Shown piece by piece: positions 14,150-21,535 of a stretch of DNA of 21,535 nucleotides. The notes beneath the pieces are model-generated. The model was not told where the DNA came from. It searched no databases and worked only from the letters and a program-made list of their open reading frames with translations. Both the position numbers and the translations under genes were made by a program. Source of the stretch: Candidatus Heimdallarchaeota archaeon (GTDB lineage Archaea > Asgardarchaeota > Heimdallarchaeia > Heimdallarchaeales > Heimdallarchaeaceae); contig JAAFKI010000147.1 in assembly GCA_021399345.1 (NCBI GenBank), positions 1 to 21,535 on the forward strand, written 5' to 3'. Position 1 is the stretch's first letter. Each line of letters starts with the position of its first letter.

Positions 14150-15343
14150 ATGGCTAATACACAAGAGAAAGAAGACAGTAAACCTACTGCTTCTAGTAAG
14201 AAAAAGACTGTTAAGGAAGAGAAAGATGCTCTTCAAGACTTCTTGTTAGGTATTACAGGGCTCTCTGATAGTATGAAGAAGAGAGTTCATAAAGTCCTTA
14301 ATACTGAAGGTATAATTGATCCGCGAGGTATTAAATCTTTAACCAATAAACAGCTTGAGGAACTACCTGGTATTACTGAAGCAACAGCATCTCTCTTGCT
14401 TGATCAATTTAAAACAAAACAAGAAGGGAAAATCTTCCTTTCATTAGAGGAGAGAGAGGAATTAGAGACTGTAAGGTCAAAGATTAAAACAGGTGCTAAA
14501 GCTTTAGATGACCTTCTCCAAGGAGGTATTCCAACTGGAACATTCGTCGAGCTTTATGGAGCCCCTCAGTCAGGTAAAACTCAGCTTTGTTACACTATCA
14601 CAGCCAACTGTCTACTTCCGAAAGAATATGGAGGGCTTGAATCAGGCATAATTTGGTTGGATACAGAAGGATCTTTTAATTCACAGAGGCTTAAACAAAT
14701 TTTATCTTATTACAAATACACTCACAACATTCCAGATGACAAGATTGATACTGGAAAATTCATGGTTGCAGCTACTCGAACTTTATCGCAAATCGAATTG
14801 GCTCTCAAAGAAGCGGGAAGAATTATCGCTAAGAACAAAGTGAAACTGCTTATCGTTGACAGCCTAATGGACCCCTTTAGAGCAGAATATGGCGGACTAG
14901 GTCAATTAGCAGATAGACAAAAACATCTCAATAGAGTATTGCATTTACTCATGAGAATTGCTGAGGCGTGGGATTTAGCTGTTCTTTATACTAACCAAGT
15001 TATGGCCAACCCGGATCCTTTCGCAACTGCAATGGACAAGGTTTTACCCAGCGGAGGCTTTATTTTAGGCCACGCTTCCGATATTCGCATTTGGCTTCGT
15101 AGAGCTACTAGTAAGATACGCAATCAGTACGATGCCCAAAATGCGCGCAGAGCTCTTATCACAGATTGCGGTTGGTTACCTATGACTGAAACTCACTTCT
15201 CTTTAGGTCCCTTTGGAGTCTGTGATGTAGATGAAGAAGCTAAACTTCGCGATTTAGCTCTAGAGATTGGTCTTGGTCTGGATTCTGAAGAAGACGAATT
15301 AGAGGAAGAAGAACTCGAGACAGAATTTGCTAAAATAGAGTGA
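14150..15343 (+). CDS. radA: DNA repair/recombination protein of the RadA/Rad51 family (divergent paralog)
   Basis: N-terminal (HhH)2 domain (LEELPGITEATA), IKTGAKALDDLLQGGI, Walker A ELYGAPQSGKTQL, LPKEYGGL, WLDTEGSF, Walker B LLIVDS, L1 FRAEYGGLGQLADRQKHL, TNQVMANPD...GGFILGHAS. Confidence 0.93.
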   Translation: MANTQEKEDSKPTASSKKKTVKEEKDALQDFLLGITGLSDSMKKRVHKVLNTEGIIDPRGIKSLTNKQLEELPGITEATASLLLDQFKTKQEGKIFLSLEEREELETVRSKIKTGAKALDDLLQGGIPTGTFVELYGAPQSGKTQLCYTITANCLLPKEYGGLESGIIWLDTEGSFNSQRLKQILSYYKYTHNIPDDKIDTGKFMVAATRTLSQIELALKEAGRIIAKNKVKLLIVDSLMDPFRAEYGGLGQLADRQKHLNRVLHLLMRIAEAWDLAVLYTNQVMANPDPFATAMDKVLPSGGFILGHASDIRIWLRRATSKIRNQYDAQNARRALITDCGWLPMTETHFSLGPFGVCDVDEEAKLRDLALEIGLGLDSEEDELEEEELETEFAKIE

Positions 15344-15349
15344 GGGGAG
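15342..15349 (+). promoter_or_regulatory. Shine-Dalgarno-like site for the 15354 ORF, overlapping the radA stop
   Basis: GAGGGGAG lies just before TTG 15354. Confidence 0.55.
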
Positions 15350-21300: not shown

Positions 21301-21535
21301 TGAAGTTAGTTGAGGAGGGAGAACAATGGGCCATATATCTTCTTGACAGTGAGAATAGATCTTTATCTAATAGAGAAATTACGATTAAGTATCTAACTGA
21401 AAACGGAACGACACTCCACACAGAAACCTATAGAACAAATTCCAATGGATTGATTATTTTTGAAATACTCTCTAAAGCATTTCTATCAGAATCAGAATAC
21501 CTAGTATTCAATTTTAGAGGTGACTCTTACTACAA
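15354..21535 (+). CDS. Giant secreted/surface protein with tandem Ig-like (Big-type) domains; adhesin-like; 3'-truncated by the window (>2060 aa)
   Basis: Frame 3 from TTG 15354 reads MRKTSFLLVFLLIVPLPFSQLLVNS (signal peptide). The same frame carries the repeats through to the last bases (...YLVFNFRGDSYY). It is absent from the ORF track, consistent with no in-window stop. Many N-x-S/T sequons. Confidence 0.9.
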   Translation, partial: MRKTSFLLVFLLIVPLPFSQLLVNSFTIPEDISTDFVYTLEYDSSSDFVIEDRIIRIVSIEDGGNSESAESPSSPSFPHFSAANYPSYTTTTGNASDVQRGETIDASSLTEYDLLGLVPVDRGTHYWYDLEEILNNQEAAAGSLSNSVFALEFAVPVSTGLMAIGFNLSDITTLISNVISIYVTDNLSNYLSDYLMFSEISFHTYNFHKNNPSSEMLFTFWDHPTTTQVGNLLTADTPYYIVLESAENFTLQTSDDQAGIDDNRVYIKENDNWVEQLNLDVDLTIFTGSLVQTSAVSSGQSNILYDTTFITGINHVLVASYYDSSSLYDCSSDFLALIILDSFNPDHLTLTSPPTAEYSDQIQLIAKVENSFFQPLQGEVVDFYYSSDNQSWISLEQGTSNEDGFAIVSYSIVEASGTKYFKAVLNLLASYSSTDQQKEIINIILPQIYCRYGSAPGYHDLAQYQMNARIIDNDGQPITGQMVFFYVQGSLDPIFLATNSSGWASSAYGFLDWGAGYYPNSFWVTTSMDSDLYIYQSTTYSDINIARSPIFLQYTENLQSYWNEPVNIDLSFNDTEGDAIPSLNYEVILYSFSDDQNTSLGLYQTDTFGEGTISFSSGFFNPGEYTIYIKVDSADYFYLEETMSLSILSDQAQITINISESEVYVYGSVIPLEIYVTDHYGTPLENIQVLVHVSAANFPDIWDEFYTIQTNSSGYAILGLSLDMQVGDILNILVFTSDYYLDGILLYGQAAAFVSYFNCVQAPSEITEIADLSGTNQDTIEIRGRVLSNGNPVVFETVIITILGIQYPVTTDGDGYFTLNYLIEQGGTITVEIVFTSSSNYLESNKTITLTSSACPVIIYATDIYHNSSNPVTFSVNIESVYGTTPTGVEVRFYWFDGANWIYLDSAYTDSMGYASLTSAITFPLGIYQWKAEVAGSSSWLINESTHYFQVGIRTSIIITVQPTAEYKQSITILASVKDEYNQPIIVEVSFYLNGTFIGSAFSDILGNVIFVWIIDFVPGEYVLTAQTMETGMYFASSDSDSITIEKTLSLISCEDVFIFYDEDFTLTIHLFSQVTGISAAYLDINIEGIYNTQLLTDFEGNAYWLITLLEPGIYTVVISFSGDNFYYSSSHSITLQVDKMPTTIDFTAPNQEYESMYSIYGYIEDSFNQPRQYVSVTLLVNGSIVQTDITDIFGYFTFSINLLPGTYMVEIEYEGDNHYLSASNQKTIYIWKIDSSVQGTVIWESMTLSITALLLDSNNNPITDQLVFFYLNGSYIDHTLTNSTGYAVIELNGIEPGFYTIEVVFSGTSIYAKSSQIIVLDQEKLQTEMSVQVSEGIYGTTTTTIQVYLTSSSVPIADQVIKLVINGVEYLGLTNSSGYLLMSLNLYESAGIYSLDVIYEGSTVYSYVSLTTSFYISKAEALIDLNFQYENFQPIIYGTLSTVMTLEGEAIQILVDYVGYEILYTDEFGEFETILILPAGTYYITASFAGNNNYFAFEKTIEVVIHKTTTVISIQDSLNQTYESETTIGFTLLDVLDNPLVTSVIVKLDGSYYATVNTNSLGYAEILLTADISAGIHILTIEYQGDTNYYQTSADITLYTKYAIVLESIQTISEIYGMSGSISGKIDNYSGNLILVQINLEIDGQFFTTYTDGSGNFLFVLDQYLPAGDYQVRIHVIATDYINYFEHLFNFTRGKGDASITINTDQFVFNEDIILAGTLVFESTPLVGVEITIYINNIEIGSLTTDSEGNFYFPSNWLDFSPGSYSLRITASITDPNIAETSQNFNLEILQDAISCTITWGDAIVEEEIELTITLKDSNGETIPYYAVLIDFEGTVHTLSTNQLGIIHFTHTLTNAGKLLFIISSSETTYYLIFQNSTMITVEKAEAVIDVVQNKVLYNSSLGLEIRLESELGNPLPNQPLLIRINSTIYTAYTDINGSVIIDLSDYLLGNYSITIDFTGSNNYEVASFIGIIEIIPQQTQMKLVEEGEQWAIYLLDSENRSLSNREITIKYLTENGTTLHTETYRTNSNGLIIFEILSKAFLSESEYLVFNFRGDSYY
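16400..21535 (+). repeat. About 18 degenerate protein-level Ig-like repeats of ~90-100 aa
   Basis: Recurrent T(D/N)xxG(Y/F/N)...(P/A)GxY...(F/Y)xG(D/N/S)xxY about every 280-310 nt, e.g. LTDFEGNA..EPGIY..FSGDNFY, ITDIFGYF..LPGTY..YEGDNHY, NTNSLGYA..SAGIH..YQGDTNY. No near-identical DNA repeats seen. Confidence 0.8.

Follow-up and report, generated by a model that had tools for sequence, protein, structure and literature searches.

The question why a recombinase gene should be followed, at a distance of a few nucleotides, by the gene of a giant cell-surface protein is raised by a 21,535-nt stretch of DNA from a Candidatus Heimdallarchaeota archaeon (GCA_021399345.1, JAAFKI010000147.1), which is here called the window and is contig C80 of a 3.27-Mb metagenome-assembled genome that is 88.6% complete. 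The organism belongs to the family Heimdallarchaeaceae (f1), which includes Ca. Heimdallarchaeum endolithica PR6 of the genus Ca. Heimdallarchaeum (genus g13). The two genes lie on the + strand at 14150–21535 and encode RadAp, a RadA/Rad51 paralog (14150–15343), and an immunoglobulin (Ig)-repeat surface protein, the adhesin (15354–21535); the genes g1–g6 of the window are distinct from the genus labels g1, g10, g11, g12, and g13. Their sequence makes it probable that they form a two-gene transcription unit and are co-transcribed, and sequence comparison gives good support to a conserved bicistronic unit within a family-specific cluster that mixes envelope and DNA-processing proteins. To our knowledge, recombinase genes are not known to be co-transcribed with cell-surface adhesins, and no description of the RadAp–adhesin gene pair was found in the published literature.

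The junction and its transcription signals

The RadAp gene ends with a TGA codon at 15341–15343 and the junction reads gagTGAggggagtataTTG; a Shine-Dalgarno (SD)-like element, GAGGGGAG, at 15342–15349 on the + strand overlaps this stop and stands 4–8 nt ahead of a TTG start at 15354. Since this TTG is the only in-frame start after the preceding stop, the intergenic gap is 10 nt, and it contains no T-run; the layout described in the original prediction, with a 10-nt gap, an SD-like site over the stop, a TTG start, and no promoter or terminator signal between the genes, is confirmed. The 16S gene is missing from this assembly and the anti-SD was taken from a genome of the same genus, whose 16S 3' end is GGATCACCTCCT with CCUCC present; because of this end, the expected SD is GAGGTGA, which the site fits at 6 of 7 positions. 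Across the genome, SD cores precede 30% of tightly spaced co-directional internal genes versus 11% of first genes (2.7x) and 2–6% of shuffled controls, the gene starts being rough. The 16S gene of genome G001 (L114:1470-1510, - strand) carries about 31 extra nt directly before the conserved GGATCACCTCCT end, which look like a mini-intron.

The same design was found in all the 21 orthologous loci compared, which belong to genera g1 and g10: the gap measures 9–14 nt without a terminator, and nearly all of them have an SD variant (GAGGTGA, GGAGG) behind or overlapping the stop, the weakest being that of L057; the stop codon (TGA/TAA/TAG), the start codon (ATG/TTG), and the sequence of the spacer differ among the loci. 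Wherever enough sequence is available, the adhesin N-terminus is encoded directly behind RadAp, and its first codons specify M-R/K-K and then a hydrophobic stretch. Since the adhesin is only 40–55% identical where RadAp is 73–80% identical, the junction has been preserved through substantial divergence; it is not a chance feature, being kept in 21/21 loci, and the tight coupling of the two genes is specific to the lineages of genera g1 and g10.

Signals for a common transcript are located at both ends of the pair. A promoter-like element at 14108–14125 (+ strand) consists of a pyrimidine tract, TTTTCTTC, at 14108–14115 and a TATA box, TTTATATA, at 14118–14125, corresponding to -32 to -25 from the RadAp ATG. 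A TATA-like element is present about 25–32 nt before the RadAp ATG in most orthologs from four genera, including g12 and g13, and about 55–62 nt upstream of RadAp in genus g10 (L048, L050), with the RadAp start mis-assigned at a few loci (L010, L042, L044, L046). Throughout the genome, TATA-like sites are most frequent at positions -31 to -29 relative to start codons, which fits leaderless mRNAs. At the other end, T-runs follow the adhesin stop in G001, where oligo-T occurs only behind the adhesin gene. The order predicted from these signals is promoter, leaderless RadAp, SD-led adhesin gene, and terminator; the claim of co-transcription is thus upheld as a prediction, based on the TATA box of the pair, its leaderless first and SD-led second gene, the short gap in all the loci, and the oligo-T found only after the adhesin gene.

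The adhesin gene could instead be transcribed separately, from a start site within the 3' part of radAp, the tight spacing being due to compaction inherited in two sister genera. Internal promoters within upstream genes are common in archaea, weak TATA-like strings are present near the end of radAp, as gctaaaataga at 15330–15340, and the arrangement in genus g13 indicates that the adhesin gene can be transcribed from another place. However, the string at 15330–15340 is not conserved, the orthologs having gctacagtagag or gcttcattagat at this place, and is too near the start for an mRNA that still holds the SD; the preceding 50 nt are GA-rich and code for an acidic tail, and no conserved TATA-like string was found in these last 50 nt of radAp among the 21 loci. 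In addition, the 9–14-nt spacing is retained in all of them and an SD in nearly all, and separate transcription is considered improbable.

Additional evidence for the pair comes from the spacer between the helicase gene g6 and RadAp, which was compared in 12 loci. It measures 57 nt in G001 and 0.1–0.3 kb in L039, L042, L044, and L049, and it holds insertions of 1.4–8.3 kb in seven of the 12 loci, one of which is the 5.4-kb block of the window with two NosD/beta-helix surface-protein genes (8825–13873, - strand), a lineage-specific insertion outside the conserved cluster. No insertion was found between RadAp and the adhesin gene in the 21 loci; this contrast between the spacer before RadAp and the junction is the clearest indication that the pair is kept as a unit and needs its own promoter, bearing in mind that these counts come from related loci and are not a formal test. 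The spacer (8756–14149 in the window) has received insertions repeatedly, frequently of surface-protein genes, for instance NosD-like ones and those of prenyltransferase-like alpha/alpha toroids.

The promoter of the pair resembles others of the same cluster. In G001 (loci L062/L063; window 14105–14149) three cluster promoters, located ahead of the gene of a 613-aa protein, of g1, and of RadAp, share TTTTCYYTAS, a TATA box, and TGAWT, and end in GACATG; in other genera a similar pyrimidine tract is found ahead of the TATA box in most cluster promoters. Generic promoters of this genome are A-rich at that place and the tract is present in only 12 of 96. The pyrimidine-TATA motif may represent a shared regulatory element.

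RadAp and the giant surface protein

RadAp (14150–15343, + strand; 397 aa) was defined by its open reading frame (ORF), the match to the Rad51 domain, and the alignment of its motifs. It matches Pfam Rad51 with 181.6 bits (cut-off 22) and remains below all the NCBIfam cut-offs for RadA, Rad51, and Dmc1 (NF003301, 215.5 versus 259; TIGR02236, 191.9 versus 361). Three Rad51-domain genes of the genome score better than or similarly to RadAp, and the best match, with 317.7 bits, is the canonical RadA on contig C30. The gene had been called radA: the assignment to the RadA/Rad51 family holds, that to radA proper does not, and by these scores the gene is classed as a divergent paralog and not as the housekeeping recombinase.

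In alignment to human RAD51 and Sulfolobus (Sso) RadA, both Walker A (GAPQSGKT) and Walker B (LLIVDS) are intact, the catalytic residues are kept, and the L2 loop is of normal length. Two motifs differ: FLSL is aligned to FTTA of RAD51 and replaces the FxxA polymerisation motif, and GGLGQ is aligned to SGRGE of RAD51 and PGREN of Sso RadA, with the consequent presence of Leu instead of the L1 Arg. The protein has a K/S-rich N-tail and an acidic C-tail, and the N-terminal HHH_5 match is weak (20.3 bits, under the cut-off of 27, E 8e-4; 24.5 bits in the Ca. Heimdallarchaeum ortholog). Among 17 orthologs the Walker A and B motifs are invariant, the regions around them and the L2 loop almost so, and the FLSL and L1 Leu changes are conserved together with most of the core; the protein is under strong purifying selection. 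Since the motif changes and most of the core are invariant in these orthologs, RadAp is to be regarded as a maintained, specialised protein.

In a maximum-likelihood tree, characterized by long branches and midpoint rooting, RadAp falls in a clade with paralogs from f3 and f4, two sister families, and is separated from the canonical RadA, and the sampled genera form distinct clades. A duplication of RadA giving a second Asgard clade was described in Heimdallarchaeia, Gerdarchaeia, and Njordarchaeia by Matsuo et al. 2025 (PMC12722695), where the gene neighbourhood is not discussed. In family f3 the sister-clade paralogs adjoin genes of XPD/Rad3-like helicases (L109:7030-13023, G034; L111:1497-8598, G032); in one genome two proteins with signal peptide and transmembrane anchor are encoded behind the paralog, and in another it is followed, after a 5-nt gap, by a 1320-aa cytoplasmic protein of unknown family. 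The G+C content of the RadAp gene is 40%, against 33.5% for the genome, which places it at the 99th percentile of ORFs, and its G+C at third codon positions (GC3) is at the 96th percentile; the canonical RadA gene is likewise GC-rich, but its GC3 is average.

The adhesin gene (15354–21535, + strand; ORF 15354–21533) encodes 2060 aa in the window and is open at the contig end. The protein starts with a signal peptide of the M-RK-hydrophobic type (residues 1–22; 15354–15419), followed by a jelly-roll lectin-like tip (about residues 95–340; 15636–16373) and by 18 tandem Ig-like repeats (residues 357–2060; 16422–21533), the latter delimited by an iterated self-profile search; its Pfam matches are Big_1, Big_3_5, CarboxypepD_reg, and Invasin_D3. 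The piece with the C-terminal transmembrane anchor is missing from this assembly and is visible only in full-length orthologs, as that of G001 (2115 aa), which ends with a transmembrane helix and KKRKR. The description of the product as a secreted Ig-repeat protein of more than 2060 aa is therefore borne out by the signal peptide, the 18 units, and the anchored ortholog.

The AlphaFold model of residues 1–440 has a mean predicted local distance difference test (pLDDT) value of 66, with 80–90 over residues 120–340, and consists of a jelly roll and then the first Ig unit; the linker between signal peptide and tip is of low confidence. The tip was placed by the VIA wide search, whose best match is the baseplate protein of phage phi812 (Z 14.8, root-mean-square deviation 2.7 A, 147 residues aligned); it also resembles phage receptor-binding proteins, other phage tail-tip proteins, the lectin-like domain of Cwp84, and carbohydrate-binding modules. 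Foldseek against PDB with the N-terminal model gave only multi-domain beta-sandwich matches of low TM-score (complement, macroglobulins), which were set aside. The tip is thus modelled as a putative lectin-like jelly roll of ligand-binding type, a fold that alone does not define what is bound. The length of the adhesin is 2109–2121 aa in three genera (orthologs in G001, G041, G045, and G046) despite 30–55% identity, with 18 repeats counted in the window and in G001, and its relative in genus g12 has 2706 aa; a constant length would suit a fibre whose length matters.

The gene cluster in Heimdallarchaeaceae

Upstream of the pair, and linked to it, a co-directional operon of six genes, g1–g6, occupies 1–8755 on the + strand. 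The product of g1, whose 5' end is open in the window, is an unknown protein for which a protein-atlas look-up gave no usable match; g2 is translationally coupled within the operon and encodes a hydrophobic multi-pass protein of 218 aa with sub-threshold Pfam matches only; g3 encodes a RadB-like RecA-fold ATPase; and g4 a 164-aa protein with a weak, sub-threshold lead to MmcB-like/PD-(D/E)xK nucleases from the same kind of look-up. The 1044-aa g5 protein combines a HerA/VirB4 fold with a winged helix: its central 520 residues (pLDDT 78) match HerA, VirB4, DndH, and TrwB (Foldseek E 1e-11 to 1e-8, TMt up to 0.70), and in all orthologs its P-loop is degenerate, with LLAGDKKT for GxxGxGKT. With g5, a sequence-profile search of PDB gave no match, and the Pfam HerA model DUF87 does not match g5 or any other gene of the contig, yet it detects other HerA-like genes in the genome. 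Pfam matches at threshold are absent in g5 (one sub-threshold RPA_C match), and no match at all was obtained for g1, g4, and the 613-aa protein. Finally, g6 encodes a Hel308/Ski2-like helicase with a SWIM-like finger, matched by Hel308 models with 154–157 bits. In the Pfam scan no Mre11, Rad50, or NurA was found in the cluster, and g5 has no BLASTP similarity to the large proteins beside the sister-clade RadA paralogs of family f3.

Co-folding of the RadAp core with the RecA core of g3 gave a score of 0.50, against 0.00 for the best of three controls, with at least 84% contact agreement between runs and a partner pLDDT of at least 80. The mark applied is reached by 58 of 80 solved complexes and by 2 of 110 mismatched pairs, and with scores up to 0.60 just 7 of the 80 solved complexes passed, together with both passing mismatches. 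Because pairs of the RecA family look like solved filaments, the modelled complex indicates likeness more than binding and is weak support for an association.

The arrangement of these genes differs among genera. In genus g1, represented by G001, the order is the 613-aa gene, g1–g6, RadAp, adhesin, and pyruvate:ferredoxin oxidoreductase (POR) genes, tightly packed, mostly overlapping, and on one strand; genus g10 has the same order and the same POR flank, with 8 kb inserted ahead of RadAp. In genus g13, in which two genomes are complete, a gene of a helicase-like protein of 600 aa precedes RadAp, which is followed by the genes of a membrane protein, a soluble protein, another membrane protein, and the adhesin (2121 aa, overlapping the preceding gene), then by g1–g6 and the 613-aa gene, all on one strand and with different flanks. 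In genus g12, RadAp and the gene of the 2706-aa adhesin-like protein are about 20 kb apart on opposite strands, and g1–g6 are on another contig. From these arrangements, the three blocks stayed together through one reordering and were separated once. The adjacency of recombinase and adhesin genes, whose conservation the original prediction had proposed to check, is therefore not unique to this genome and is found in 21/21 loci of genera g1 and g10, with three genes lying between in g13 and the linkage broken in g12; the suggestion that the pair and the upstream operon belong together is sustained as one conserved neighbourhood, with blocks permuted yet contiguous on one strand in g13. In this genus (L053:7837-14818, Ca. 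Heimdallarchaeum endolithica; L067), the 600-aa helicase-like protein has no Pfam match and the three intervening genes encode a 384-aa membrane, a 440-aa soluble, and a 246-aa membrane protein. Homologs of the 440-aa and 246-aa proteins are encoded by an adjacent pair on contig C171 of the genome under study, and BLASTP of the three extra genes against g1 and g2 gave no similarity.

RadAp orthologs with 73–95% identity are present in 16 of 24 other genomes of the genus, in addition to fragments, and RadAp and the adhesin tip domain co-occur exactly within the genus, both being present in 17/24 and both absent in 7/24. Since the two genes are adjacent, joint absence can be explained by a single assembly gap; true loss in the seven genomes was set aside, as in G012 a contig ends in the gene elsewhere just upstream of RadAp. 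With the g5 profile the hallmark of the cluster was detected in 26 of 30 genomes of the family, covering all five genera, with an ortholog identity that falls with taxonomic distance; in a search of 400 genomes of the phylum only one weak match was obtained outside the family, in the sister family f2. As far as detected by sequence, the cluster appears restricted to Heimdallarchaeaceae.

This distribution bears on the idea that the locus belongs to an integrated element, which is not supported: Pfam detected no integrase family in the window or the flanking DNA of G001, all five genera have the cluster, the RadAp tree separates the sampled genera, and housekeeping POR genes lie downstream of the adhesin; the borders of such an element were not searched. 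The composition of the window, which was to be compared with that of the host, is indeed atypical, its tetranucleotide make-up standing at the 97th–99th percentile of distance from the genome mean, with g1–g6 slightly AT-rich; it is read as a bias of gene content and not as a sign of recent acquisition, because the cluster is family-wide and ortholog identity falls with taxonomic distance. In G005, the genome of another species (L055:9939-10682, C119), a 744-bp copy of the RadAp promoter and of the 5' two-thirds of radAp is 94% identical to window 14089–14827; this copy is frameshifted and truncated and lies beside fragments of NosD-like genes, in surroundings about 70% identical and syntenic to G000:C41, and the same genome also carries its own intact RadAp–adhesin pair with 73% identity. 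The copy resembles a trace left by DNA transfer between species or by a moving cassette, and may also be an assembly chimera.

A defence island against viruses or plasmids was also considered, in which a HerA-type scaffold, a HamB-like helicase, a small nuclease, and RecA-like sensors or effectors would act together with the surface protein as a co-regulated decoy or receptor mask. In fact, g6 matches Hachiman HamB models with up to 126 bits, many top structural matches of g5 are HerA of defence complexes (Sir2-HerA, DUF4297-HerA), and the composition of the window is atypical. In contrast, g6 scores higher on the Hel308 models, and PADLOC called no system, matching only a generic helicase model, and found no HamA (DUF1837), Sir2, or DUF4297 partner in the cluster; moreover, presence in 26/30 family genomes and five genera, with identity tracking taxonomy, is unlike the patchy occurrence of defence islands. 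This explanation is very improbable.

The main rival is a functional one: the genes would be co-transcribed but unrelated in function, g1–g6 and RadAp forming a cytoplasmic module for DNA-break repair or replication restart, with the adhesin using the promoter of the paralog and kept there by descent. Every DNA-side component has archaeal repair relatives (Hel308, the HerA fold, RadA/RadB paralogs), the neighbours of the f3 sister-clade paralogs are XPD-like helicases and, for the most part, cytoplasmic proteins, genus g12 does without the linkage, and the unrelated POR genes downstream are also common to genera g1 and g10. Such a module does not account, however, for the hydrophobic multi-pass g2 coupled inside g1–g6 and the two more membrane proteins in the g13 array, for a junction free of insertions next to a spacer that is an insertion hot spot, or for blocks that remained together through a reordering that changed their flanks; Mre11, Rad50, and NurA, in turn, are not part of the cluster. 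The repair module is doubtful, although it keeps an appreciable weight, and that the RadAp–adhesin pair and g1–g6 constitute one functional system receives a slight preference over doubt.

A proposed role in handling DNA at the cell envelope and comparison with known systems

The reading favoured overall is that the unit co-expresses a recombinase and a surface fibre and that, as we infer, the cluster handles DNA at the cell envelope; it is put forward tentatively, with slightly more doubt than conviction. In the mechanism proposed, the TATA box 25–32 nt upstream would drive a leaderless mRNA with RadAp as first cistron, and the second cistron would be translated from the SD overlapping the RadAp stop; its product, a protein of about 2,100 residues anchored in the membrane, would form a fibre in which 18 Ig-like domains carry a lectin-like tip and whose length is estimated from these domains at roughly 70 nm. 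The transcription unit would be one module of the cluster, the other modules being g1–g6 and the 613-aa protein, and co-expression would set the amount of the specialised recombinase together with that of the contact-making fibre. Touching cells could exchange or take up DNA, with subsequent recombination, in a way that would work like Ups/Ced without homologous parts: the tip of the Ig-repeat fibre would bind the neighbour cell, a membrane-associated complex built around an inactive HerA/VirB4-type ring, the RadB-like ATPase, a nuclease, and the Hel308-like helicase would receive or pass on the DNA, and RadAp would recombine it. A role of the cluster in intercellular DNA exchange or uptake is rather unlikely, and it is a bold and distinctly unlikely proposal that Heimdallarchaeaceae own a dedicated, previously undescribed, mating-like system through which cells in contact exchange DNA and of which no part is homologous to Ups/Ced or conjugation.

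Several observations weigh against the envelope reading. With its degenerate P-loop, g5 probably cannot hydrolyse ATP; a transcription start may exist deeper inside radAp; and direct contact between adhesin and RadAp is unlikely because the cytoplasmic tail of the former has only about 7 residues. Surface-protein genes are very common in these genomes. In genus g13 the gene to which that of the adhesin is coupled encodes a membrane protein and not RadAp, and the array contains a 441-nt spacer; in genus g12 RadAp, the adhesin-like gene, and g1–g6 are unlinked. Since genera g1 and g10 share the downstream POR genes, the RadAp–adhesin adjacency may be synteny handed down by descent, and the number of independent arrangements is then roughly two. 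As regards DNA transfer, no Pfam families of type IV pilus genes (UpsE/F ATPase, membrane protein, pilins) were found in the window ORFs or the G001 flanks, TraG and integrase are absent from the locus, and CedA and VirD4 gave no match in searches made without a dedicated profile. The check for VirB4, TraG, CedA, or integrase genes further downstream was negative, no VirB4, TraG, pilus, or integrase gene being present after the adhesin in G001, and the only such fold is that of the upstream g5; a search for fusexin (HAP2-GCS1) gave no match, but the control genomes gave none either.

The mode of DNA exchange in Asgard archaea is a question that bears on the origin of eukaryotic sex, and Heimdallarchaeaceae are among the closest known archaeal relatives of eukaryotes. 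What the analysis provides is a specific pair of genes, with its signals conserved, within a delimited cluster of 10–12 genes, and RadAp, a Rad51-like paralog of full length whose polymerisation and L1 residues are altered, deserves biochemical work; if the two genes were linked only through co-transcription by descent, the locus would still be a clean example of an Asgard operon with a leaderless first and an SD-led second gene.

The comparison with Ups pili and Ced/Ted of Sulfolobales and Thermoproteales (PMC9905601, PMC11868833, PMC11823120) concerns the proposed working logic only, that is, a surface contact structure, membrane proteins, a protein of the VirB4/HerA superfamily, and homologous recombination of the incoming DNA as end point; in particular, g5 shares the HerA/VirB4 fold with CedB-type ATPases. 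The parts of the Heimdall cluster are not homologous: no type IV pilins or UpsE/F were found nor, in searches without a dedicated profile, CedA (VirB6-like), CedA1/A2, or VirD4-like CedD, so that the comparison is functional only, the VirB4-fold protein has a degenerate P-loop, and contact would be due to a single-pass Ig-repeat fibre and not to a pilus. On the other hand, a recombinase paralog and a helicase are encoded within the Heimdall cluster, which is not the case in Ups/Ced.

Like the archaeal HerA-NurA and Mre11-Rad50 end-resection operons, the Heimdall cluster unites in one operon a HerA-fold protein, a small candidate nuclease, and partners of helicase or recombinase type; it differs in its degenerate Walker A, in lacking NurA, Mre11, and Rad50, and in the additional membrane and surface proteins. 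As RadB, aRadC, and the second Asgard RadA clade, RadAp is an extra RecA-family gene next to the housekeeping RadA; unlike RadB and aRadC, it retains the layout of Rad51 over its full length, with a putative HhH-like domain at the N-terminus and the L1 and L2 loops. Finally, the adhesin shares with bacterial Ig-like adhesins (invasin/intimin Big_1, RTX-type fibrillar) the signal peptide, the long tandem Ig rod, and the distal jelly roll. In contrast to them, it has no RTX, beta-barrel, or sortase signals and is anchored in an archaeal membrane by a C-terminal transmembrane helix, the tip being N-terminal; it varies little in length (2109–2121 aa, 18 repeats, three genera) and is encoded behind a recombinase gene.

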